A stretch of DNA of 12,331 nt from a virus (taxonomy: Duplodnaviria; Heunggongvirae; Uroviricota; Caudoviricetes), in IMG/VR virus record IMGVR_UViG_2675903368_000015; one strand, written 5' to 3'. The position numbers and the translations under genes are program-made. This document shows, piece after piece, positions 1 to 12,331 of this stretch. Under the pieces are notes generated by a model that searched no databases, had not been told where the DNA came from, and saw nothing but the letters and a program-made list of their open reading frames with translations. Numbering within the stretch: position 1 is the stretch's first letter; each line of letters starts with the position of its first letter.

Positions 1-276
1 GTGGCTTCTGTTTCTATCAGCTGTCCCTCCTGTTCAGCTACTGACGGGGTGGTGCGTAACGGCAAAAGCACCGCCGGACATCAGCGCTATCTCTGCTCTC
101 ACTGCCGTAAAACATGGCAACTGCAGTTCACTTACACCGCTTCTCAACCCGGTACGCACCAGAAAATCATTGATATGGCCATGAATGGCGTTGGATGCCG
201 GGCAACCGCCCGCATTATGGGCGTTGGCCTCAACACGATTTTCCGCCATTTAAAAAACTCAGGCCGCAGTCGGTAA
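1..276 (+). CDS. insA: IS1 InsA (transposition inhibitor, DNA-binding)
   Basis: 91-aa product [39 protein letters not shown]... with Cys-rich N-terminus and HTH region, ending HLKNSGRSR; GTG start, stop at 274..276. Confidence 0.9.
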
Positions 277-698
277 CCTCGCGCATACAGCCGGGCAGTG
301 ACGTCATCGTCTGCGCGGAAATGGACGAACAGTGGGGATACGTCGGGGCTAAATCGCGCCAGCGCTGGCTGTTTTACGCGTATGACAGGCTCCGGAAGAC
401 GGTTGTTGCGCACGTATTCGGTGAACGCACTCTGGCCACACTGGAGCGTCTTCTAAGCCTGCTGTCGGCCTTTGAGGTCGTGGTATGGATGACGGATGGC
501 TGGCCGCTGTATGAATCCCGCCTGAAGGGAAAGCTGCACGTAATCAGCAAGCGTTACACTCAGCGAATTGAGCGGCATAACCTGAATCTGAGACAACATC
601 TGGCAAGGCTGGGACGGAAGTCACTGTCGTTCTCAAAATCGGTGGAGCTGCATGACAAGGTCATCGGGCATTATCTGAACATAAAACACTATCAGTAA
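195..698 (+). CDS. insB: IS1 insB reading frame; the transposase is made as the InsAB' fusion by -1 frameshifting from insA
   Basis: 167-aa ORF in the -1 frame relative to insA, overlapping its 3' end; sequence ...[28 protein letters not shown]...[15 protein letters not shown] matches IS1 InsB. Confidence 0.85.
252..258 (+). promoter_or_regulatory. IS1 programmed -1 ribosomal frameshift heptamer A-AAA-AAC
   Basis: Sequence ttaaaaaactc; in the insA frame the codons are TTA AAA AAC, so the heptamer at 252..258 sits exactly where the insB frame overlaps. This is the known IS1 recoding signal. Confidence 0.8.
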
Positions 699-798
699 GT
701 TGGAGTCATTACCCAACAGTTTTATCAGGACCTACGATATATTATATAACAACAAGCCGCCCATTACCCAATATGAGGGTATTAGCGGCAATGTAAAA

Positions 799-1293
799 TC
801 AGAACAGTCCTTTAACTGAACTGGCCACGCTGTTAAGGGATGATGTGACCTTATCTTTGAAGCCGGACAGCATATCACTGAACGATGAGGATTGCAGACG
901 CTCCCGCAAATCCTCATCACAGCGTTCAAGGGTCAGTGAAAATTCTATCTTTTTCGCCTTACCGTAGCGATCAAACTCGGAACGGGTCGTATTCGTTTCA
1001 GTCAGTACATACATGCCGTAAATCTGCCCGACACCATCAATCAGAGGCCAGGGGCGTCCTGTATATGCCTGTGTGGTCAGCAACGAAAGCGACACTTCGC
1101 CACCTGTAATTTCAGGATAAAGCACGCCGGAAAGCACGATGCGATCATCACCTGCGCCGATATACTGCCAGCTTGCTGAACGGTTAACGCGTTCATTTTT
1201 CACATGCCGCCAGCTTTTGTTTTGCTGTAACTGCTGATGCGGCAATGTGCGCAGCTCAAAAACAAACATGCCGTAGATCATCATCATGGCCAT
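799..1293 (-). CDS. U: P2 gpU-like tail protein
   Basis: 164-aa product with ...SWRHVKNERVNRSASWQYIGAGDDRIVLSGVLYPEITGG...TGRPWPLIDGVG... resembling P2 gpU as I recall it; lies directly downstream of the tape measure gene on the same strand, as U does in P2. Confidence 0.75.
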   Translation of the reverse strand: MAMMMIYGMFVFELRTLPHQQLQQNKSWRHVKNERVNRSASWQYIGAGDDRIVLSGVLYPEITGGEVSLSLLTTQAYTGRPWPLIDGVGQIYGMYVLTETNTTRSEFDRYGKAKKIEFSLTLERCDEDLRERLQSSSFSDMLSGFKDKVTSSLNSVASSVKGLF

Positions 1294-1299
1294 GACTCC

Positions 1300-4116
1300 T
1301 CAATCTTTATCGTAAAAACTGCCACGTCCGGCACGAGCACGCCGTTCCACCTCTGCCCTGACCATTTCACCGACCAGTTTCGCCAGTTCGCGGGGATTCT
1401 GCGTAACAACGTTATGCAGATGAACATGAATTTCACCGCCAAATCCGGAGACAACAGGCTCCCGGTTACGGGAAGTTGCAGGAACTGATGCCACTGGCGA
1501 TCGTATGGCCTCCGCCACCGGGCGGGAGCTGGCCGCAACAACAGGGACCAGCGCCGGAGGCAGCAGAGCCGGGACCACGGGTGTGATGTTGATTGCGGAA
1601 GCAGGCTTACTGACCTGCGCAATCTTCCGCTCCTGCCACTCCCCACGAACAGCAAGTGCGCGGGGCAGGTTCTTAAAGACAATATCGCCGGGGCCAATAC
1701 GTTTTTTTGTCTCATCAACCAGCTTACCTGTGTTATCAGCAATTTTGCTGAGTCTGCGTAGCGTGCCGGTATTGCTGTCTGTGAGCGGTTTGTTGTCTTT
1801 GGGTTTATCGCCTCCGGTGCCATTGCCATTTTCCGCAGACTTCGGCGGATTGATTTTCGCAATGTCTCCCTGAAACAGAGCAACCTTGTCCTGAAGAATG
1901 GCCGCACGCTGTGCGTCTTCGATTTTCTTTCTCGCCCTTTCCGCTTCATCCGGAAGCACACCGAGTTTTTCAAGTATCCACGCCAGCGTATCCAGCAACA
2001 TTTTTGCAGGCGTCAGAACAAGCTGTAGCGCGCCACCAAGAACGTTACCGAATATCTCGCCAGCACTGGTACATTTATCCAGCGTTTCCTTGCTGGACTC
2101 CATCGGTGACAGCAGCGATTTAAACCAGTTAAACACCTGGCTGATCCCGCTTCCGATTGCGTCAAAAACAGGACCAAACCGTTCAAAGGTTTCACGCAAC
2201 GGGGTCAGCCTTTCCATAATCCCGCCGAACACCCCGGCAAAAAATGCCCTGATGGGATCCCAGTATTTCCAGATAAGAACGGCAGCTCCGGCAAGCGCAG
2301 CCACGATAAGACCAACCGGACTGAACAGCGCCCCGATAGCGCCTCCCAGCAAAGAAACGGAACCCGTCACCATTCCCCACAGCGCAGGCAACACCCTGAC
2401 GACATTCATTGACCGGGTAAGAATGTCAAAACCAAGACGCAGGGTGGCCAGCTTCCCGTAAAGCCCCCCAATAACCAGCGACAACGAGCCAATCGTTGCA
2501 GTCATTGCCAGCAACGCACCGCCTGCTATCAGTAGCTGGCGCGTCAGTACCGGATGGGCCTGCGCCAGCGAGGTGATTTTTTCAAGCACCCGCGTGAGCC
2601 ACTGCGTGACAGAACGCAGCGGACCGTCAACCAGATCACTGATGCGAATACGAAGACCTTCCCATGCGCTATCGAGATTTTTCAGGTCCCCATCAAGATT
2701 ATCGGCCATTACTTTTGCGACGCGATCGGCCTCTCCCCTTGCCCCCTGCAATTCTCTGGTCAGTTTTTGCAGCTCTCCTGAACCAGCCGCCGCAACAAGC
2801 GTCTGCAAACCAACGAACGCCTCTTCTCCGGCGATGTCCTTGAAGAAGGAAACCTGGTCCACCTGTCCGTATTTTTGTGTCGCCTTATAGAGATCAAGCA
2901 GCACATCCTCCATCGGGCGCATTTTGCCTCTGGCGTCAGCAACTGACACTCCCAGCTCTTTCAGCGCATCAGCCGCAGCTTTTGGCGGTGATGCAAGGCG
3001 GGACAGACTTGCGCGCATGGCCGTACCAGCATCGCTTCCGCGAAGACCATTATTGGCAAGCATCCCGGCCATGGCTGCCGCTTCTTCAAGACTGATACCA
3101 AGTTTTGCGGCAACCGGACCGGTATACTTCATGGTTTCGCCCAGCGCGCGTAAATCAGTATTGGTCCGGGTGAATGCCGCTGTCAGCGTATCGCCAACCC
3201 GGTCCATTTGATCGGCTGTCAGGTTGAACTGTGTGAGGATATTGGAGCCTATATCAGCCGTCTCGCCGAGTTCGACGCCACCTGCCAGCGCCATATTAAG
3301 AACACCGGGCAATGCGGCCTGAATGGCCTGCGGAGTAAAACCAGCCATTGCCAGAAAGCTCTGCCCACTGGCGGCATCACTCGCAGTAAACTGTGTTTCA
3401 GAGCCAAGTTTTAACGCCTGCTCACGCAGCGCCTTAAACTGCGGGCTGTTTTTGTCGATTCGCGTCAGTGCCTGAACGCGGGACATCTCTTTGCCGAACC
3501 CGATCGCAGGCTGCAAAAAACGCCCGGCAGCATAGCCGCCCGCCGCTGCCGCACCAATTGCCAGTGCACCACCTGTTTTCAGTTTTCCCGCTGTTTCCTG
3601 CGCGCGCGAATACCGCTCACGCGCCCGCGTTACACGCGCAAGCGCCTGCCGTTCGCGTTCAAGCTGGTTGTTGTACTGTTCGGTGCGTCTGATGGCCTGC
3701 TGGATGGTGTTATCGCTGCCTGTCAGGGAAATGCCGTGGCGTTTCAGCTCTCCGCCAAGCTCCCGCATTTTTTGAATTTCCCGTGTGCGCGATTCATTCA
3801 GGCGTTCAAGCCGGGTGCTTAACTGCTGCATCAGCTTTTGTTGTTTTTCGCTGAGCACTGTACCCGTGCGTTGTAACTGATTAAGGGCGTTAAGCTGGCG
3901 TCGTGCTTTCACGATGCCCGCATCCGCTTTACTGACAGCGTCACGGGCGCGCTCAAATGAACGCGCCTGACGCTCGAGATTTTTGAGCGCCCCCTGCGTT
4001 CGCTGGATGGAGTCACCAAACTGCCCCATCAGGCGGCGGGCGTTTTCGGCAGGCCGGGTCAGCCTGTCAACGGCGCTGAAAGCGACCCGGATATCAAGAG
4101 TCTTCATTATCTGCAT
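1300..4116 (-). CDS. T: Tail tape measure protein (P2 gpT-like)
   Basis: 938-aa ORF with a long coiled-coil-rich N-terminal part (many Q/R/E/L heptad-like stretches), a Gly/Ala-rich hydrophobic central segment, and position between the E/E' chaperone pair and U. Confidence 0.85.
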   Translation of the reverse strand: MQIMKTLDIRVAFSAVDRLTRPAENARRLMGQFGDSIQRTQGALKNLERQARSFERARDAVSKADAGIVKARRQLNALNQLQRTGTVLSEKQQKLMQQLSTRLERLNESRTREIQKMRELGGELKRHGISLTGSDNTIQQAIRRTEQYNNQLERERQALARVTRARERYSRAQETAGKLKTGGALAIGAAAAGGYAAGRFLQPAIGFGKEMSRVQALTRIDKNSPQFKALREQALKLGSETQFTASDAASGQSFLAMAGFTPQAIQAALPGVLNMALAGGVELGETADIGSNILTQFNLTADQMDRVGDTLTAAFTRTNTDLRALGETMKYTGPVAAKLGISLEEAAAMAGMLANNGLRGSDAGTAMRASLSRLASPPKAAADALKELGVSVADARGKMRPMEDVLLDLYKATQKYGQVDQVSFFKDIAGEEAFVGLQTLVAAAGSGELQKLTRELQGARGEADRVAKVMADNLDGDLKNLDSAWEGLRIRISDLVDGPLRSVTQWLTRVLEKITSLAQAHPVLTRQLLIAGGALLAMTATIGSLSLVIGGLYGKLATLRLGFDILTRSMNVVRVLPALWGMVTGSVSLLGGAIGALFSPVGLIVAALAGAAVLIWKYWDPIRAFFAGVFGGIMERLTPLRETFERFGPVFDAIGSGISQVFNWFKSLLSPMESSKETLDKCTSAGEIFGNVLGGALQLVLTPAKMLLDTLAWILEKLGVLPDEAERARKKIEDAQRAAILQDKVALFQGDIAKINPPKSAENGNGTGGDKPKDNKPLTDSNTGTLRRLSKIADNTGKLVDETKKRIGPGDIVFKNLPRALAVRGEWQERKIAQVSKPASAINITPVVPALLPPALVPVVAASSRPVAEAIRSPVASVPATSRNREPVVSGFGGEIHVHLHNVVTQNPRELAKLVGEMVRAEVERRARAGRGSFYDKD

Positions 4117-4687: not shown

Positions 4688-5200
4688 TCAGCCAAGCCCA
4701 AGCGCGGAACGGATACGGTCAGGCACAATGTCCTTGCCGTCCTTCCGGTAGATGTGGTTCAACAGGTCGATTTCCCACAGCGGGCGATCGTTAACGCTCA
4801 GCTTGTAGTAGGTGTTTTTGACAGCGTAAGTGTGTGATGTGGCTTCGCCCTGTTTGGCTTCCCCCATATCAATTTCCGTCACACGTCCGCGCATCTCGAT
4901 TTCATACAGATCGCTTTCTGCATCGGTGTAGTATTCACCCGCAAAACGCAGCAGCGTGCCGTCAATCGTGCCGCCATATTTAAGGAACAGCGCACGAACA
5001 GCTCCCCCCATAACAAAACTCGCATCAAGCGCGGAGTCGTCCAGACCGAGATCAATACTTACCGCCCCCATCATGCCACCACCACGATAGCTGTCGGTTT
5101 TGCGCGTCAGTTTGGGCGGCGTGACGGATGTCACTTTACCCACTTCGTTTTCACCATCCACAAACAACGTAAAAAAGCGAAGATGTTTTGGTACAGCCAT
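4688..5200 (-). CDS. FII: Contractile tail tube protein (P2 gpFII-like)
   Basis: 170-aa product; motifs ...PKLTRK...YRGGGMMG...DLGLDD...MRGR..EID.GE.KQGE... resemble P2 FII. The start ATG overlaps the FI stop as TGATG, with a GGGAGGTG RBS inside the FI 3' end. Confidence 0.85.
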   Translation of the reverse strand: MAVPKHLRFFTLFVDGENEVGKVTSVTPPKLTRKTDSYRGGGMMGAVSIDLGLDDSALDASFVMGGAVRALFLKYGGTIDGTLLRFAGEYYTDAESDLYEIEMRGRVTEIDMGEAKQGEATSHTYAVKNTYYKLSVNDRPLWEIDLLNHIYRKDGKDIVPDRIRSALGLG

Positions 5201-6384
5201 CAGGCACCTCCCAGCACCGCAAATGCGGGACCAAAGAATTCATCAGTAAACGTCTGGTAAAGCTCCATGTCTTCCAGTGGCGGAACGGGCGTATATTTGT
5301 AGCGAATACGCACACGCCCCTGACGTAAATCCGTGGTGCCGTTATCCACCACGTCATACCAGCACTCCGCGCCAATCAGTTTCCCGGCAGTAACCAGCGA
5401 ATCCAGTTTTGCCCTGATGGCACTGATAACATCCTTCACGTTCGCAGGCGTCAGTGGACTGTCGATGGTTTCAAACTGCGCTTCCGCAATTGAATCAGCC
5501 AGCACCTGTGCGGTTCGGGTATACACCTCAAAGATGTAGGCGTTCGTTTCCGGTGTGCGGTTGCCCCAGAAGCGGAACCCGTTGCGACGAATAATGGTCG
5601 TGATTTCTTTGTTGTTGAGGCTGTTGGCATCGCTGTCTTCGGCCTGCAACGACCAGAACACATGCCTCGACATCCCCAGCACATTTTTAACCGGAACGTT
5701 GGACAGTGATTTGTGCCACCCCTGCTCATGGTCAATGTACGCACGAAGGCCGCACGCATAGGCAGGCGCGGGGAACGTTTCGTTTTTGCCACTTTTCGGG
5801 TTGTAGGCGATGAAGTCCGGCCATAAGAGCATCACCTCACGTTCGTTGAATTTCTGGCGATAGGTAATCGCCTCAGCCATCGTGTTACAGCCGTGACATG
5901 AGGCATACACAAACGCGCGCAGTTTACCTGCAATCACGCACAGGGATTTTGTTACAGCCTCCGTGTCCAGCTCCGGCGCGGCCAGAATACGCGGACGGTA
6001 TCCGATGCTTTCATCCTGCTCTGCAACAAGCAGCGCATACATCCCCGTATAGCTGCCGTCATCCTCAGAACCACCGATAACCAGTTGATCCTGCGTCTTT
6101 CCGTCTTCTTCTTTGTGTTCAGCCACGCGAACGACGATCACCTTTGTGCTCACCTGGTCTGCGATGGCCTTAAGCGCACGATAAAGCGTCCCCGTTGTTC
6201 CGCATTTTCCCAGCACGTCATTGACGCGGGTCAGCAATGTGGGCTTGTTCAGCGGGAACAGCTTCGCGTCCGCATCATCCGCCGTTGCCACGATACCGAT
6301 AACGCTGGAATCAACATCGTTAATCGCTGTTACCAGGTCGGTATTTTCCGTAACACGGGCACCATGAAAACGAGTTTCACTCAT
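5200..6384 (-). CDS. FI: Contractile tail sheath protein (P2 gpFI-like)
   Basis: 394-aa product; motifs ...FPLNKP...KLRAF...WPDF...EQGWHK.LSNV...IRR.GFRFWGNRT...YTRTAQV...YTPVPPLE... resemble P2 FI. Confidence 0.9.
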   Translation of the reverse strand: MSETRFHGARVTENTDLVTAINDVDSSVIGIVATADDADAKLFPLNKPTLLTRVNDVLGKCGTTGTLYRALKAIADQVSTKVIVVRVAEHKEEDGKTQDQLVIGGSEDDGSYTGMYALLVAEQDESIGYRPRILAAPELDTEAVTKSLCVIAGKLRAFVYASCHGCNTMAEAITYRQKFNEREVMLLWPDFIAYNPKSGKNETFPAPAYACGLRAYIDHEQGWHKSLSNVPVKNVLGMSRHVFWSLQAEDSDANSLNNKEITTIIRRNGFRFWGNRTPETNAYIFEVYTRTAQVLADSIAEAQFETIDSPLTPANVKDVISAIRAKLDSLVTAGKLIGAECWYDVVDNGTTDLRQGRVRIRYKYTPVPPLEDMELYQTFTDEFFGPAFAVLGGA

Positions 6385-6541
6385 AGCTTCAGCCCCTTGT
6401 ATCCGTTAAATGATTCAGCAACAATCATCACCCACCACGCGCGTAATCTCACCCCTGCGCTATTCTCCCGCCACGGCGACAACAAAAAGCAGTAACCCCC
6501 TCCGCACGCACATGCGACCATGCCGCACAGGGAGGGAACAG

Positions 6542-7651
6542 ATGACCGACACCACCATGCAATTGCTCAGTCAGGGCACAGACCCCGTGAAAATGCCGGA
6601 TTTTGATATTCTCGCCGAGGGTAAAACGCTGTCCGGCGTGGCAGAACGCCTGATGAGCCTGTCACTGACCGACAACCGGGGATTTGAGGCGGACCAGCTC
6701 ACCATCACGCTGGATGATGCCGATGACCAGTTGCAGCTACCGCCACGGGGCGCGCGTCTGACGGTTCTCATTGGCTGGAAAGGGGAACCGCTGACAGAAA
6801 AAGGCACTTACATTGTTGATGAAATCGCTCACGAAGGACCGCCGGACAGGCTGACTGTTTCAGCCAGAAGCGCAGATTTTCGGGATGAATTTAATGTTAA
6901 ACGTGAGGCGTCCTGGCATGATGTGACCGTTGAACGTGTGGTATCCGCCATCGCTCATCGGTACAGCCTGAAACCGCAAATCAGCGAAATGCTGATGGAT
7001 ATCGAAATCGACCACGCCGACCAGACTGAAGAAAGCGACATGTCCTTCCTTACGCGCATGGCGGAAATGCTGGGCGCAATCACCACGGTAAAAAGCGGTA
7101 ATCTGTTATTCATCATGCCCGGCGGTGGCGTGAACGCACAGGGCCAGCCGTTGCCATCGTTCGCCATCACACGCAGCAGCGGCGATCGCCATCAGTTCCG
7201 CATTGCTGACCGCGAGGCGTATACGGGGGTACGCGCTTACTGGCTTGATCTTAATTACGGGAAAAAGAAAAAAGTCAGCGTGAAACGCCGCAAACCGCCA
7301 AAACCCAAAAAGGAGAAAAGCAGCAGCCGTGAAGGTGATTATATGGAAGGCGCGGAAGGCAATGTGTTTGTGTTACGCAAGACTTATCAGAACGAGCAGG
7401 CAGCAAGACGCGCAGCGGCGGCAAAGTGGCAGCAGCTACAACGCGGAGCCGCATTATTTTCCATCACGCTGGTGCGTGGACGTGCAGAACTCTACCCCGA
7501 AATGCATGGCACGGTAACAGGATTTAAAAGCGAGATTGATAATCAGGACTGGATTATTGCGAAAGCCGAGCACACCATTGATAACAGCGGCTTTACCACA
7601 CAGCTTGAGCTTGAGGCAAAAATCCCGGAATGGATAGCAGAAACAGAGTGA
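6542..7651 (+). CDS. D: P2 gpD-like tail/baseplate protein (phage late control gene D family)
   Basis: 369 aa from the ATG at 6542, which has a GGAGGG RBS 5 nt upstream (the track ORF extends in frame to 6410 without an obvious RBS). Motifs ...LSLTDNRGFEADQLTITLDDADDQLQLP.RGA...GW.GE...DEI.H.G.PD.L...ARSADFR...ESWHD... and a Lys-rich linker before the C-terminal ...LQRG...FSI.L.RGRA.L.PE....GFK..ID.QDW.I...H...NSGFTT.LELE are typical of this family. Confidence 0.8.
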   Translation: MTDTTMQLLSQGTDPVKMPDFDILAEGKTLSGVAERLMSLSLTDNRGFEADQLTITLDDADDQLQLPPRGARLTVLIGWKGEPLTEKGTYIVDEIAHEGPPDRLTVSARSADFRDEFNVKREASWHDVTVERVVSAIAHRYSLKPQISEMLMDIEIDHADQTEESDMSFLTRMAEMLGAITTVKSGNLLFIMPGGGVNAQGQPLPSFAITRSSGDRHQFRIADREAYTGVRAYWLDLNYGKKKKVSVKRRKPPKPKKEKSSSREGDYMEGAEGNVFVLRKTYQNEQAARRAAAAKWQQLQRGAALFSITLVRGRAELYPEMHGTVTGFKSEIDNQDWIIAKAEHTIDNSGFTTQLELEAKIPEWIAETE

Positions 7652-7719
7652 GCAACTTAGACATATTAGCTCAAACTTAAACTGGCAAGTTTACAGTATA
7701 GAATTAAACATAAACGACG

Positions 7720-7748
7720 GTCCGCTCCGTGTCAGAAGCGGACTTTGT
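7720..7748. terminator. Candidate terminator hairpin between the convergent D and 340-aa genes
   Basis: 7-bp stem gtccgct/agcggac with a 10-nt loop, followed by tttgt on the plus strand; weak U tract, so modest confidence. Confidence 0.3.
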
Positions 7749-7771
7749 CATCCCTATGTAAGGTTGATTGC

Positions 7772-8794
7772 TTAATACGCATTTAATTTAAATTTGTATT
7801 TGCCTTCTATGTAATGGATAAATTCAATTATGCTTTTTTCTATCGCATCTAATATATGAATATATCCATCCCGATTTAAGGTCCTATCCAACTCAAAGTG
7901 ATGAACTATCCCATGTCTATATTGTATGATTTCAGAAATTCGATTCTCAAGAAAATCAACTGATTTTCCAATTCTTTTTTTCTTATAAAGAATCGCTCTC
8001 ACATCTATATCCAGCCACTCTTTATATGCTTTGTTTAGGTGGGTTAAGTTTTGAAAAGTGTAATTTCTTGCAATAACACTTTCTATTGAAATATTTCCTT
8101 TCTCTATCTCAAGCAGAATATCAAAATCAACTTTTTGCTTATACGATGTTCTTTTTGCTATTGCGAAAGGATCGTACTTTATAAGTATTTGAAAAGCTCT
8201 AGAGAAAAAGTATTCAAACATAGCAACCGCAAAAGGTACTAATCCATTATATATAACTCTACTGGGATCCATACATTGCATGTAATCAAAGTATTCGGAT
8301 AAACCGCCATCTTCCGGTAGGTTTAATTTAATAGAAGGTTCAGGTAAGGCATGTTTAACAGCGGAAATCTCATGATGGACATGATTAAATATTGAAGAAA
8401 TGCCACGACTGATCGGACTACTAGAATCCTTCCATAGAGGAGCGTACCTATTTTTCCCATAATCACCTATAAGTGTTCCACCAAAAAGACTCCTTGCGCC
8501 TTTTAGAACATCATTAAGCATTTTTACATCATGCCAACTAGCGCTATATAAATTACGCACATGCAATGCCCATTTATTACCAGATATGTGTAATTCGTCA
8601 TTTGAAACAGGATATATATCAGCCGAAACTCCATCTGTAGATTTGAAGTCCGTATCATCAAACCAAGAGTAATTCAACGTTCCTTGGGGCCATTCCCTCA
8701 AATGTTTACACCTTTTAAAACCTAAATTTTCAAGGTAATTTTTAAGTTCGTTTCTAGTTGCTTTTTTAGGGTACAGCGTTATATCTCTTCCCAT
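7772..8794 (-). CDS. Hypothetical protein, 340 aa, AT-rich inserted gene between D and ogr; function unknown
   Basis: Long uninterrupted ORF on the strand opposite D and ogr; AGGTG RBS about 8 nt upstream of the ATG at 8794; base composition visibly AT-rich compared with the flanking tail genes. No family recognised by eye; contains RHGIVHH near the C-terminus. Confidence 0.75.
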   Translation of the reverse strand: MGRDITLYPKKATRNELKNYLENLGFKRCKHLREWPQGTLNYSWFDDTDFKSTDGVSADIYPVSNDELHISGNKWALHVRNLYSASWHDVKMLNDVLKGARSLFGGTLIGDYGKNRYAPLWKDSSSPISRGISSIFNHVHHEISAVKHALPEPSIKLNLPEDGGLSEYFDYMQCMDPSRVIYNGLVPFAVAMFEYFFSRAFQILIKYDPFAIAKRTSYKQKVDFDILLEIEKGNISIESVIARNYTFQNLTHLNKAYKEWLDIDVRAILYKKKRIGKSVDFLENRISEIIQYRHGIVHHFELDRTLNRDGYIHILDAIEKSIIEFIHYIEGKYKFKLNAY

Positions 8795-8926
8795 GCTTTA
8801 TTCACCTGATATACAATATTTTAAATTTTAACTATTATGAACGTATGAATTTTCACATTGGATGTATGGAAGTTCAACAACTATTGAAAGTTCAATTTTC
8901 ACTCTTCGCACAGAGCGAGCTGTTAG

Positions 8927-8955
8927 TTGGAATTAGGGATCGTACAATCTAGAAT
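8927..8955 (+). promoter_or_regulatory. Candidate sigma70 promoter for ogr (TTGGAA-N17-TAGAAT)
   Basis: -35-like TTGGAA at 8927..8932, 17-nt spacer, -10-like TAGAAT at 8950..8955, about 30 nt upstream of the ogr start. Confidence 0.35.
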
Positions 8956-8985
8956 AGCGGCAACACCACGTTAAGGGAGGTCGCT

Positions 8986-9246
8986 ATGTTCCGTTGTCCG
9001 CTTTGTGGCGCATCTGCCCGTATCCGCACAAGTCGTCCGGAAAATGATTCAAACACCGTGCGGCAAAAGTATTACCAGTGTAACAATCTGGAATGCGGCG
9101 TATGCTTCTCAACACTGGAAGCTTTCCATAAATTCACATCGAAACACGCCTCCGGCGTTCACTCTTCAGAAGGTATCCCGTGGCATGAGCTACCAGCTTC
9201 ACACAGGGGAAACAATCAGATGAGTTTGCCTTTACCTCAGAATTAA
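8986..9246 (+). CDS. ogr: Ogr/Delta-family zinc-finger late transcription activator
   Basis: 86-aa product MFRCPLCGASARIRTSRPENDSNTVRQKYYQCNNLECGVCF... with the Cys-X2-Cys ... Cys-X4-Cys pattern and overall similarity to P2 Ogr (MFHCPLC...ARTSR...YHQCQN..C...F...); AAGGGAGG RBS 5 nt upstream. Confidence 0.8.
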   Translation: MFRCPLCGASARIRTSRPENDSNTVRQKYYQCNNLECGVCFSTLEAFHKFTSKHASGVHSSEGIPWHELPASHRGNNQMSLPLPQN

Positions 9247-9436: not shown

Positions 9437-9577
9437 ATGTCGCAAAAATCGCTTACAGCCATCACGTTCTGCGTGACGGTAATCCTCATCATCTGGATGT
9501 TGCACGGTTCGCTGTGCGAAATACGGATGAGTTTCTGGGGAGCGGAGTTTGCGGCGTTCTTACAGTGTAAGCAGTAA
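9437..9577 (+). CDS. Hok/Gef-family type I toxin-like small membrane protein (46 aa), not in the supplied ORF track
   Basis: Hand-translated: MSQKSLTAITFCVTVILIIWMLHGSLCEIRMSFWGAEFAAFLQCKQ. One hydrophobic helix followed by SLCEIR and AAF, as in plasmid R1 Hok (...[27 protein letters not shown]). AAGGAG RBS 8 nt upstream. Confidence 0.6.
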   Translation: MSQKSLTAITFCVTVILIIWMLHGSLCEIRMSFWGAEFAAFLQCKQ

Positions 9578-9837: not shown

Positions 9838-10170
9838 ATGGCATTAATCAAATGTCCTGAATGCCAGAAAGAGGTGAGCGATTCAGCATTGTATTGCCCT
9901 GCTTGCGGTAAACAAATAAAAAAACTTAAGCGTTCATTTTTTGGAAAGCTCATTAAGTGGATATTTATATTATTTAATATTTTTATGATCTATACGCTTT
10001 TAGTTGGACTGGGAGGCACTAGTGAAATAATAAATAATGCTACATCCGATGCCGAAAAAGCCGGTGCAGTTATTGGTACAGGCTTAGGTTTAATTACCAT
10101 TGGAAGTTTATGGGTTATTGGCGATATCATTATCGGAATTTTAGTATTTCTTACTAAACCAAAAGGATAA
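9838..10170 (+). CDS. Small membrane protein with N-terminal zinc-ribbon (CPEC...CPAC) and two predicted transmembrane helices
   Basis: 110-aa product; N-terminal CPECQKEVSDSALYCPACGK, then two long hydrophobic segments (LIKWIFILFNIFMIYTLLVGLG and AVIGTGLGLITIGSLWVIGDIIIGILVFL); AAAGGAGG RBS 8 nt upstream; AT-rich. Confidence 0.7.
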   Translation: MALIKCPECQKEVSDSALYCPACGKQIKKLKRSFFGKLIKWIFILFNIFMIYTLLVGLGGTSEIINNATSDAEKAGAVIGTGLGLITIGSLWVIGDIIIGILVFLTKPKG

Positions 10171-10174
10171 CAAA

Positions 10175-11068
10175 ATGAAAAATATAATTTTTTCTATAGG
10201 TGCATCATTTATATCAATTAGTGTACTGCCTGTTCACGCAGCAACTGAACATAATAACTTCAATGCAGTACTCCAGTGCCGAGCAATAGAAAATAATAAA
10301 GACAGACTTTCTTGTTACGATAAGTCAATACAACCGACTCGAACGAAAGTTGCTGAAAAATTCGAAAGCAGAGATCAATGCCCTGATGAGAAAGATGATG
10401 ACAGACGTTTATCTTGTTATGATCGTTTTTTTTCTCCAACATTTACTCCATCTGTAAACTCAAAATCTAAAACGGAAAAGCCAGTAACAACAGAGGCTCA
10501 GCAACCAAATCTTTCTGAGATATCTAAATGCCGAGCAGAAAATGATAAAGAAGCCAGACTAAACTGCTACGATAAACTATTCCCACAGGATAAAGCTGTT
10601 CAAGCTGAATCAAAATTAGAGAAAGCCACAGATGTAGGAAAATGGCACACATCCATTACTACATCGCCAATTGATGATTCGAAAAATGTAATTTTATCGT
10701 TAGAAAGTGATGATTATATCAGAACTCCATTTGGAGAAGCGGTTACTCCCACTCTGTTTATAGCTTGCCGAGAAAAGAAAACCGAAGTATTTCTTAGTTG
10801 GGATGTATATTTAGGCCTTGAACAAACCAGCATGCTTTATCGTCTTGATAAACAGAAAGCAGTTGAGCGAAACTGGCTAGTATCTACAGATACAAAGGCT
10901 GTTTTTTATAAAGGTAATGACATTGATTTCATCCGAAAACTAGCCAACTCAAACAAAATGTATACAAAAATAACTCCTTATAATGAGAGCCCTGTAAGTG
11001 CAACTTTCAATTTAAACGGCCTGTCAAACGCGCTAAAACCACTTCAAGCTGCTTGTAACTGGAAATAG
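10175..11068 (+). CDS. Secreted protein with three tandem Cys-pair repeats and a C-terminal domain of unknown function
   Basis: 297-aa product; start is 4 nt after the upstream stop, with an AAAAGGA RBS (operon-like); N-terminal signal peptide MKNIIFSIGASFISISVLPVHA with AXA-type cleavage site and no lipobox; three repeats of C-x9-RL-x-CYD (CRAIENNKDRLSCYD, CPDEKDDDRRLSCYD, CRAENDKEARLNCYD); C-terminal Cys pair (IACREK ... AACNWK). Confidence 0.75.
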   Translation: MKNIIFSIGASFISISVLPVHAATEHNNFNAVLQCRAIENNKDRLSCYDKSIQPTRTKVAEKFESRDQCPDEKDDDRRLSCYDRFFSPTFTPSVNSKSKTEKPVTTEAQQPNLSEISKCRAENDKEARLNCYDKLFPQDKAVQAESKLEKATDVGKWHTSITTSPIDDSKNVILSLESDDYIRTPFGEAVTPTLFIACREKKTEVFLSWDVYLGLEQTSMLYRLDKQKAVERNWLVSTDTKAVFYKGNDIDFIRKLANSNKMYTKITPYNESPVSATFNLNGLSNALKPLQAACNWK

Positions 11069-11335: not shown

Positions 11336-12331
11336 ATGATACAACCTATTTCCGGTCCTCCTCCTGGGCAACCACCAGGTCAGGGAGATAACCTGCCGTC
11401 TGGCGCAGGCAATCAGCCTTTATCCAGTCAGCAACGTACTTCGCTGGAAAGCTTAATGACGAAAGTGACCTCACTGACGCAACAACAAAGAGCAGAACTG
11501 TGGGCGGGTATCAGGCACGATATTGGTCTGTCGGGAGATTCACCGCTGCTTTCGCATCACTTCCCTGCCGCTGAGCATAATCTGGCGCAACGTCTGTTGG
11601 CCGCGCAAAAAAGCCATTCTGCCCGCCAGCTTTTAGCGCAATTAGGGGAGTATTTACGTCTGGGGAATAATCGTCAGGCGGTCACGGATTATATCCGTCA
11701 TAACTTTGGTCAGACGCCGCTGAATCAGCTCTCACCGGAGCAATTAAAAACCATTCTCACCCTGTTGCAGGAAGGGAAGATGGTTATTCCGCAACCACAG
11801 CAGCGCGAGGCGACCGACCGTCCTTTATTACCGGCGGAGCACAATGCGCTCAAACAGCTGGTGACCAAACTTGCGGCAGCAACGGGGGAACCCAGCAAAC
11901 AGATCTGGCAATCGATGCTGGAACTTTCCGGGGTGAAAGATGGCGAGTTAATTCCAGCGAAACTGTTTAACCATCTGGTGACCTGGCTACAGGCGCGTCA
12001 GACGCTAAGCCAGCAAAATACGCCGACACTGGAATCACTACAGATGGCGCTAAAACAACCTTTAGATGCCAGTGAACTGGCGGCGTTATCGGCATATATC
12101 CAGCAAAAATATGGCCTTTCTGCGCAATCATCGCTTTCTTCTGCCCAGGCCGAGGATATTCTTAACCAGCTTTATCAACGGCGGGTTAAAGGGATTGAGC
12201 CGCGTGATATGCAACCGCTGCTTAATCCTTTTCCACCGATGATGGACACGTTGCAAAATATGGCAACGCGTCCCGCGCTGTGGATACTGTTAGTCGCGAT
12301 TATCCTGATTCTGGTCTGGCTGGTTCGTTAA
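11336..12331 (+). CDS. flk: Flagellar regulator Flk (C-terminally membrane-anchored)
   Basis: 331-aa product beginning MIQPISGPPPGQPPGQGDN..., Gln-rich, ending in a hydrophobic anchor RPALWILLVAIILILVWLVR; matches my recollection of E. coli Flk; AAGGA RBS 7 nt upstream. Confidence 0.7.
   Translation: MIQPISGPPPGQPPGQGDNLPSGAGNQPLSSQQRTSLESLMTKVTSLTQQQRAELWAGIRHDIGLSGDSPLLSHHFPAAEHNLAQRLLAAQKSHSARQLLAQLGEYLRLGNNRQAVTDYIRHNFGQTPLNQLSPEQLKTILTLLQEGKMVIPQPQQREATDRPLLPAEHNALKQLVTKLAAATGEPSKQIWQSMLELSGVKDGELIPAKLFNHLVTWLQARQTLSQQNTPTLESLQMALKQPLDASELAALSAYIQQKYGLSAQSSLSSAQAEDILNQLYQRRVKGIEPRDMQPLLNPFPPMMDTLQNMATRPALWILLVAIILILVWLVR

Follow-up and report, generated by a model that had tools for sequence, protein, structure and literature searches.

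We describe a gene on IMG/VR virus record IMGVR_UViG_2675903368_000015, a 12,331-nt stretch of DNA from a tailed phage (Caudoviricetes) that is called the window throughout and to which all coordinates refer. The gene encodes a protein of 340 amino acids and sits, as cargo, between tail gene D and the late-gene activator gene ogr of a P2-like prophage. Its predicted fold, its invariant residues and its location are consistent with a putative prophage-borne, self-contained ribonuclease of the abortive-infection or defence type, or toxin-like, a reading to which we give a probability of about 0.6. The features at the centre of this reading are the following, with the open reading frame abbreviated ORF.

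7772-8794, minus strand: cargo gene, 340 aa, ATG start, stop codon at 7772-7774 (ORF list and translation)
8420-8794, minus strand: codons 1-125 of the cargo gene, N-terminal alpha/beta domain
7796-8308, minus strand: codons 163-333, all-helical HEPN domain
7898-7918, minus strand: codons 293-299, RHGIVHH, with the Rx4H motif (R293, H298) as the inferred catalytic site
8802-8807, minus strand: Shine-Dalgarno sequence AGGTGA, 7 nt 5′ of the cargo ATG (direct reading of the sequence)
7720-7743, unstranded: hairpin GTCCGCT-N10-AGCGGAC between the convergent D and cargo genes (terminator scan, stem 9 bp)
6410-7651, plus strand: tail gene D, left flank of the hotspot (Pfam Phage_GPD)
8986-9246, plus strand: ogr late-gene activator, right flank of the hotspot (Pfam Ogr_Delta, E 5e-14; RefSeq annotation)

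The cargo protein belongs to a family of nearly constant length. A search of 5.8 billion proteins returned 295 homologs, mostly of about 340 residues. The best 120 of these are nearly all 338-345 residues long, save a few partial sequences, share 64-99% identity, have sources that include Pantoea, Proteus, Shewanella, Aeromonas, Pseudomonas, Methylococcaceae and Halochromatium, and for the most part carry a precomputed PF18735 assignment. Across Escherichia and these other taxa, identities of 64-87% are combined with hardly any insertions or deletions and a near-constant length of about 340 residues, and this cross-genus conservation supports, at the level of aligned sequences, a functional constraint on the protein. 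An exhaustive HMMER search of 1.84 billion cluster representatives extended the family to 285 clusters at E ≤ 0.001, whose members keep their length and architecture down to about 20% identity.

Conservation was assessed in 52 full-length family members with identities down to 19%. Six positions are invariant among them (G55, D89, E194, F247, R293 and H298), and S86, N94, F104, G105, G106, G113, N183, Q248 and H294 are nearly so, H294 being present in at least 90%. R293 and H298, spaced as R293-x4-H298, form the Rx4-6H motif by which the HEPN superfamily is recognized, with a polar residue (H294) after the arginine as usual, and the domain that carries them has the all-alpha, up-down helical bundle of that superfamily. 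An AlphaFold2 model built on the 52-sequence alignment (predicted local distance difference test, pLDDT, 95.5; predicted template modelling score, pTM, 0.89) divides the chain into an alpha/beta domain (1-125), a long helix (127-149) and an all-helical domain (163-333). The best and only Pfam match of the C-terminal domain is HEPN_RiboL-PSP (PF18735), which aligns with residues 181-329 at E 2.5e-4 and matches 36 of the 52 relatives at E ≤ 0.01, the best at 4.3e-10. HEPN enzymes are metal-independent endoribonucleases that usually act as dimers with a composite active site. These results support a HEPN domain with an intact catalytic motif in the C-terminal half, and this domain is predicted, with high confidence, to be catalytically competent.

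An earlier note on this DNA, made from the letters, had tentatively read RHGIVHH (residues 293-299) as a HEPN motif and had seen no Walker A motif; the invariance of R293 and H298 together with the PF18735 matches bears out the former, and the absence of any P-loop family in Pfam agrees with the latter. Of the profile and structure searches that it proposed, the former found PF18735 in the family, and a comparison of the model by Foldseek with the PDB and BFVD gave nothing at E ≤ 0.001. Among PDB sequences the family profile matched the HepN-family toxin 6m6w, and this match is weak (E 1.1), with lRHkiiH placed over lRNiavH along the Rx4H motif. Like a syntaxin match from a profile search of the PDB (E 0.27), it is at chance level by score.

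The N-terminal half is, as far as these searches reach, a domain without an assigned family that is fixed in the cargo protein family. Residues 1-125 match no family in Pfam, NCBIfam, PHROG or PADLOC, and their fold likenesses are generic ones (ZipA C-domain, BamC N-domain, KA1, Med18/20 and spermine synthase N-domain). The protein as a whole has no NCBIfam or PHROG family either. Among the partial matches checked, none gives either domain a new partner, be it a different effector behind the N-terminal domain or a different N-terminal domain before the HEPN domain; one (P0248) aligns over its full length and six others hold no Pfam domain beyond PF18735, so that the partial matches give no sign of domain shuffling.

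The cargo gene was found to lie in a precise, AT-rich insertion that most sister prophages do not have. Guanine-plus-cytosine (GC) content is 0.31-0.37 from 7600 to 9000, against 0.51-0.58 across the tail genes, and 0.34 in the cargo ORF, against 0.53-0.54 in the tail genes; the remaining ORFs of the cassette are short, unconserved and at most 47 aa long. The hairpin at 7720-7743, terminator-like on both strands, sits between the D stop and the stop of the cargo ORF. Only 42 bp separate the D stop from the ogr ATG in the sister prophage of strain UTI89. Searching 5,426 complete E. coli genomes with D, cargo and ogr recovered this D/ogr pair in 1,463 of them, most with a D/ogr span of 1,543-1,545 bp that corresponds to the empty site, and the cargo gene in 65, always chromosomal and always at the D-ogr junction. 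Alignment to the empty site places the limits of the insertion at 7661/7662 and 8953/8954, with 1,318 nt in the window against 26 nt in the empty site, so that the net gain is 1,292 bp. The insertion is flanked by the two copies of an imperfect 9-bp direct repeat, the left one reading CAACTTAGA and the right one CAATCTAGA; the empty site has one copy.

Homologs occur in settings that differ from one another and share this foreign composition. The gene has a GC content of 0.33-0.40 against 0.44-0.59 in its flanks in E. coli, Aeromonas, Shewanella, Pseudomonas and Pantoea settings, and is thus an AT-rich newcomer in every host examined. It lies in chromosomal islets of Shewanella (a small one) and Aeromonas (AT-rich, about 4 kb), in an AlpA/DUF927 (P4-like) integrative element beside a UvrD-helicase gene pair in Pseudomonas, and in a lambdoid prophage near a SIR2 gene in Pantoea. 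In another P2-like phage, an 81%-identical homolog stands right behind the genes for the tail fibre and its assembly, at the equivalent of the Z/fun hotspot, and an 87%-identical homolog on an unrelated contig has kept the hairpin just after its stop codon. No neighbour of the cargo gene is conserved in the nine contexts examined, a nucleotidyltransferase (MNT) gene is found in none of them, and neither the protein nor its neighbours have an L-PSP or ParB domain. Since no neighbour is conserved, the cargo gene appears to work alone.

The genomic picture drawn in the earlier note has largely held. It had described about 1.3 kb between D and ogr with one long opposite-strand ORF under its own ribosome-binding site, convergent with D across a hairpin and AT-rich against GC-rich tail genes, all of which the coordinates and compositions above reproduce. 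Its premise that D normally adjoins ogr agrees, for this lineage, with UTI89 and with the empty site of most of the 1,463 genomes, and horizontal acquisition is supported by the precision of the insertion, its absence from most sisters and the contrast with the flanks in five genera.

To place the insertion among other contents of the same site, we surveyed the junction in 80 IMG/VR contigs encoding this D protein, 71 of which have both anchors. About 60% of these 71 loci (43) are empty, with 24-26 nt, and 28 are filled with 0.9-3.5 kb. The cargo of the filled loci has a GC content of 0.32-0.42, consists nearly always of one gene, on either strand, and comprises at least 17 different proteins. 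Different cargo was likewise found at 11 of 40 D+ogr places in a spread sample of E. coli genomes. The junction thus combines conserved flanks, variable content, empty sites and known defence genes among its alternates, as a hotspot does. The alternate occupants are listed below.

PifA (E 1e-64)
PDC-S06 (E 2e-277)
PDC-S31 / DUF2971 (E 5e-27)
PsyrT-like protein, in a two-gene cargo (E 9e-8)
GmrSD_N+HNH protein
Two different PIN-domain proteins, PIN_12 and PIN_4
Other occupants: DUF3800, SEC-C-motif protein, ParA-like ATPase, alpha/beta hydrolase, and several without family

Because several of these alternates match known or candidate defence genes or defence-type domains, the HEPN gene sits among exchangeable defence cargo. 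The expectation that cargo of P2-like prophages is often defensive, for which the earlier note had suggested a survey of this junction, is met with here in PifA, PDC-S06, PDC-S31, GmrSD-like and PIN proteins. Single-gene cargos of 465, 930, 478, 274, 221-229 and 201 aa (loci L040, L042, L056, L015, L016 and L017) match no Pfam or PADLOC family and are further defence candidates. Two P2 hotspots, old/tin between A and Q and Z/fun between G and FI, have been treated in detail (Rousset 2022; Vassallo 2022; NAR 2026, PMC13586616; iLund4u preprint). A third, "between a tail protein and CI", is mentioned in a 2024 preprint, and the NAR 2026 survey (PMC13586616) places hotspots "within the tail genes" and near int/att. 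The literature reviewed gave passing mention of the D-ogr site and no detailed account of it.

These observations suggest the following mode of action. The gene would have arrived as a 1.3-kb AT-rich cassette at D-ogr, a hotspot where sister prophages hold other single-gene defence modules. Its C-terminal HEPN domain (about 163-333, with R293 and H298 as catalytic residues) would be the effector that cuts RNA, and the N-terminal alpha/beta domain (1-125), joined to it by the long helix (127-149), would silence the nuclease as an auto-inhibitory sensor. On a sign of infection, be it a phage protein or another cue, the N-terminal domain would release the nuclease, and the active enzyme would arrest translation and thereby stop the invading phage. 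We infer from the fold, the motif and the hotspot a ribonuclease that may be activated by infection and may confer an anti-phage phenotype.

Several points weigh against this interpretation. The PF18735 score of the cargo protein, 21.4 bits, falls short of the gathering threshold of 28.4 bits; the family overlaps PF18735, but the window member lies below the cut-off. No model of PADLOC-DB v2.0.0, which includes PD-T4-2, ApeA and AbiD/F/J/U/V, matches at E ≤ 0.1, PD-T4-2_B included, and a promoter scan gave no strong or convincing sigma-70 consensus for the cargo gene. The gene can also be lost: at locus L018 (IMG/VR UViG_2711768071_000013, 5868-6752) the same cassette is 1 nt shorter and its longest ORF has 295 aa, so that this copy is probably a frameshifted pseudogene of the HEPN gene. 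Moreover, some RNA-processing proteins without a defence role have HEPN domains, other HEPN domains bind nucleotides and are non-catalytic, and the assignment of this protein to defence is a computational one.

Other functions would account for part of the same evidence. An addiction or toxin-antitoxin toxin that stabilizes the prophage or the cassette, with a small RNA, a tiny ORF or its own N-terminal domain as antitoxin, seems unlikely to us, even if the closest solved folds are the HepT/MntA HEPN toxins (7ae2, 5yep). Addiction functions do exist in this prophage, since a hok/Gef killer gene lies just 3′ of ogr, and the cargo gene has been kept where IS1 has replaced the tail-fibre side beside U. 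Against this, the nine contexts have no MNT gene or other conserved neighbour, the cassette offers only unconserved ORFs of at most 47 aa besides the cargo, and no Rfam RNA was found in the window or at a cassette end. Toxin-antitoxin and abortive-infection roles can, in any case, coexist. Slightly less probable again is some other service to the prophage, in which the ribonuclease would exclude or interfere with satellites (P4) or rival P2-like phages, or process transcripts in lysogeny or induction. The cargo gene adjoins ogr, and P4 delta mimics this late-gene activator. Non-defence cargo also occurs in P2 hotspots, such as a GT9 gene at the Z/fun position and an alpha/beta hydrolase at D-ogr. 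A P2-specific role is nevertheless argued against by the occurrence of the gene outside phages, in the Aeromonas and Shewanella chromosomal islets, and in a P4-like element, and the exclusion of a satellite or rival phage would still be defence.

It is very improbable, in our estimate, that the HEPN-like domain is a non-catalytic ligand-binding or scaffold domain in a protein whose function is unrelated or not selectable. The sub-threshold Pfam score, the frameshifted copy and the many inactive HEPN domains tabulated by Anantharaman et al. (2013) would fit such a case, but the Rx4H motif is invariant in the family, along with E194, N183 and F247-Q248, sequence conservation across genera is very high, and the Ribo L-PSP-HEPN family is given as having the catalytic motif (Anantharaman et al. 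2013). We retain the putative single-protein defence ribonuclease as the preferred reading. As far as computation goes, the protein is supported as a putative new architecture among single-gene, HEPN-based, prophage-borne defence. That the system is undescribed, as the earlier note had supposed, is consistent with the lack of a PADLOC, NCBIfam or PHROG family; we found no description under the accession or as "RiboL-PSP-HEPN" in the literature, nor in the DefensePredictor supplements, these sources being incomplete.

The flanks of the cassette are conserved even though the D-ogr cargos are unrelated: at least 18 unrelated cargos share the same ends (loci L010-L017 and L035-L087). These ends comprise the following features.

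7652-7748, plus strand: conserved left cassette end, including the direct repeat CAACTTAGA at 7653-7661 (nhmmer, model of 18 distinct left ends, E 8e-18)
8896-8953, plus strand: conserved right cassette end, closing in the repeat copy CAATCTAGA at 8945-8953 (nhmmer right-end model, E 1.8e-10)
8927-8955, plus strand: promoter-like site for ogr, TTGGAA, 17-nt spacer, TAGAAT (promoter scan)

The left end begins with CAACTTAGA, continues with TGYATTAGCTCAGAC and, after about 35 nt, with CTGACAGTCCGCTYTGTGCCAGAAGCGGAC, and has the hairpin at 7720-7743 as its core; the right end runs from GCGGACTGTCAGTTGGAGTCTGAGC through AGTA to CAACTTAGA. Read in the inverted direction, the right end repeats the left in shorter form, the two making imperfect inverted repeats, and a hidden Markov model (HMM) of the right end matches the reverse complement of left ends from independent loci at E 0.003-0.016. 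For the ogr promoter-like site, the −35 element is supplied by the right end of the cassette and the −10 element spans the junction; right ends keep a TTGGAG or TTGGAA −35 across cassettes whose cargos are unrelated.

The same ends were found beyond D-ogr. The left-end model has matches immediately behind gene G, in the classical Z/fun hotspot of P2 (E 1e-11 to 1e-13); cassettes there also have right-end-like sequence before the FI promoter region. The model further matches CP4-like islands, 5′ of a YeeP-like GTPase gene at the border of variable cargo (E 1e-7 to 1e-9); there the inner hairpin block alone matches and right-end matches are chance-level. A 42-nt core, AACCTAATCTGACAGTCCGCTCTGTGCCAGAAGCGGACATTA, with a hairpin of 7-bp stem, is found 4,719 times, spread over 2,835 of the 5,426 E. 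coli genomes, each time without annotation. It marks the borders of variable cargo in three hotspots, namely D-ogr, about 50 bp after gene G (L100/L104/L105) and 5′ of the YeeP-like GTPase gene (L098, L099, L101-L103). Rfam has no RNA family in the window, in a cassette end or in the 42-nt core. The hairpin shows no covariation (74.8% paired cells against 73.8% when shuffled; covariation score 0.163 against 0.170), and its conservation is therefore at the level of sequence.

That the ends are common to at least 18 unrelated D-ogr cargos, to Z/fun cassettes and partly to CP4-like islands, and that the 42-nt core is so frequent, is evidence that they travel independently of cargo. They could be recombination handles, the ends of non-autonomous mobile cassettes, or insulators (terminator plus ogr promoter) that are co-selected with cargo. 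A bolder proposal, possible but held only tentatively, is that the HEPN gene is one cargo of a family of portable cassettes whose ends serve as the substrate of a trans-acting recombinase or transposase, or as universal recombination handles. If true, it would account for the passage of single-gene defence modules from one mobile element to another, unrelated one. How defence modules move between elements was left open by the 2026 survey (PMC13586616), and the shared ends offer a sequence handle on their movement between hotspots of different mobile elements.

The carrier is a P2-like prophage whose identified late genes, besides D and ogr, are these.

799-1293, minus strand: U
1300-4116, minus strand: T
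Between T and FII, minus strand: E/E′
4688-5200, minus strand: FII
5200-6384, minus strand: FI

The earlier note had spoken of P2, and the carrier is indeed P2-like, but belongs to a P2-like lineage and is not P2 itself; NC_049343, classed by RefSeq as Peduoviridae, Gemsvirus, also carries the cargo gene, this "phage" record being a prophage prediction with host genes included. The note had further described the cargo gene as transcribed against the phage late genes. This is correct for D and ogr, whereas the FI-FII-E-T-U block is itself opposite in strand to D and ogr and runs in the same direction as the cargo gene. This differs from the gene order of P2. The opposed orientation recurs in every sister prophage examined (UTI89, 94-3024, 500465-2 and others) and is therefore a feature of the lineage and not a local accident; a local IS1-mediated inversion was rejected because UTI89, 94-3024 and all other sisters examined share the arrangement. 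A DNA invertase adjoins U in some sister prophages. Judging from RefSeq annotation of a 369-aa "phage late control D family protein" in sister prophages, D probably starts at 6542 and has 369 aa, the start given by the ORF list (413 aa) being too early. RefSeq labels for D vary among sister prophages between a 266-aa "VgrG/Pvc8 family" protein with a small pseudogene and the 369-aa "late control D" protein. FI and D, from its probable start at 6542, are divergent, with about 157 bp between their starts.

The prophage locus lies between pdxB and flk, the last ORF of the window (11336-12331) being flk. At the same locus, the prophage of strain 94-3024 has a full late-gene set and looks intact across the 20 kb examined, and that of strain H1 is a remnant with a truncated integrase and IS1. 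The window has an IS1 copy at 1-698 (transposase ORFs 1-276 and 195-698), cut by the left window edge and about 100 bp from U. Since an intact relative has a GT9 gene and tail-fibre genes where this IS1 stands, the window prophage may be truncated or rearranged on the U side. The GT9 gene (L107 13125-14303; L001 3873-5051) occupies the Z/fun-equivalent position in this lineage, after the tail-fibre assembly gene G, and is a candidate for lysogenic-conversion cargo that modifies lipopolysaccharide.

On the other side, the Hok/Gef-family killer gene (46 aa, about 9437-9577) lies just 3′ of ogr near the prophage end and is annotated in matching RefSeq loci; no Sok-type RNA was found near it by Rfam at the gathering threshold. 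Between flk and the end of the prophage there is a second AT-rich block, 9838-11068, with a GC content of about 0.36. This block encodes a zinc-ribbon protein of 110 aa and a VasI/TagO-like protein of 297 aa, of a kind associated with type VI secretion, although the neighbourhood has no other type VI secretion genes. It adjoins flk in all three strains with a prophage at pdxB-flk, while it is absent where this type of prophage sits at serS. The window contains no tRNA gene, and the prophage end is therefore not at one.

If the preferred reading is true, the gene represents a compact (1 kb) single-protein, HEPN-based abortive-infection system that is widespread in Gammaproteobacteria and their phages. 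Its N-terminal domain would then be a new kind of infection sensor, and, being of no known family, a new trigger-recognition module for the HEPN defence repertoire. Testing is easy, as it takes one gene and two point mutants. Independently of the protein, D-ogr is documented here, for a P2-like lineage that is common in E. coli, as a third, mostly single-gene cargo hotspot, and its occupants make a short list of further candidates because many match no defence model.

The closest known systems resemble the cargo gene in different respects. In the case of HepS, from prophage Gifsy-1 (Salmonella Typhimurium; PDB 9oik), siphovirus tail-tip proteins allosterically switch on a lone HEPN protein, which then cuts tRNAs in their anticodon loops (PMC13043305). 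The cargo gene is likewise a single HEPN gene on a prophage without a partner, although its product has no detectable sequence homology to HepS, and its carrier is a P2-like myovirus and not a lambdoid siphovirus. The trigger of HepS (tail-tip protein J) and its target (tRNA anticodon loops) are established, whereas the cargo protein is known from its sequence. The Ribo L-PSP-HEPN family, which has the Rx4-6H motif and is distantly related to AbiD and AbiF (Anantharaman et al. 2013), supplies the sole Pfam match of the C-terminal domain, PF18735; unlike that family's settings, the cargo protein has no endoRNase L-PSP fusion, ParB operon, or GNAT partner or domain. PD-T4-2_B is labelled a RiboL-PSP-HEPN protein, and plaquing of T4 increased when PD-T4-2 was deleted from the strain to which it is native (PMC9519451). 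A one-protein GNAT system tested in the DefensePredictor work, for which delta-HEPN and R258A variants were assayed, has the PD-T4-2_B cluster as its nearest known-defence match. The cargo protein belongs to neither of these systems, since it has another architecture and gives no PADLOC match.

With the type VII toxins HepT/MntA (5yep, 6m6w, 7ae2) the cargo protein shares the minimal HEPN ribonuclease fold, the RxxxxH motif aligning residue by residue, but the similarity is insignificant (E 1.1), the cargo protein is 2.5 times longer with an extra N-terminal domain, and its gene has no adjacent MNT antitoxin gene. The setting is closest to the P2 hotspots old/tin and Z/fun, which also hold variable, AT-rich, defence-rich cargo between conserved phage genes. 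The likeness to Z/fun extends to the 81%-identical homolog at the equivalent site and to cassette ends common to Z/fun cassettes and D-ogr, while the site described here is D-ogr and its cargo is almost always a single gene.

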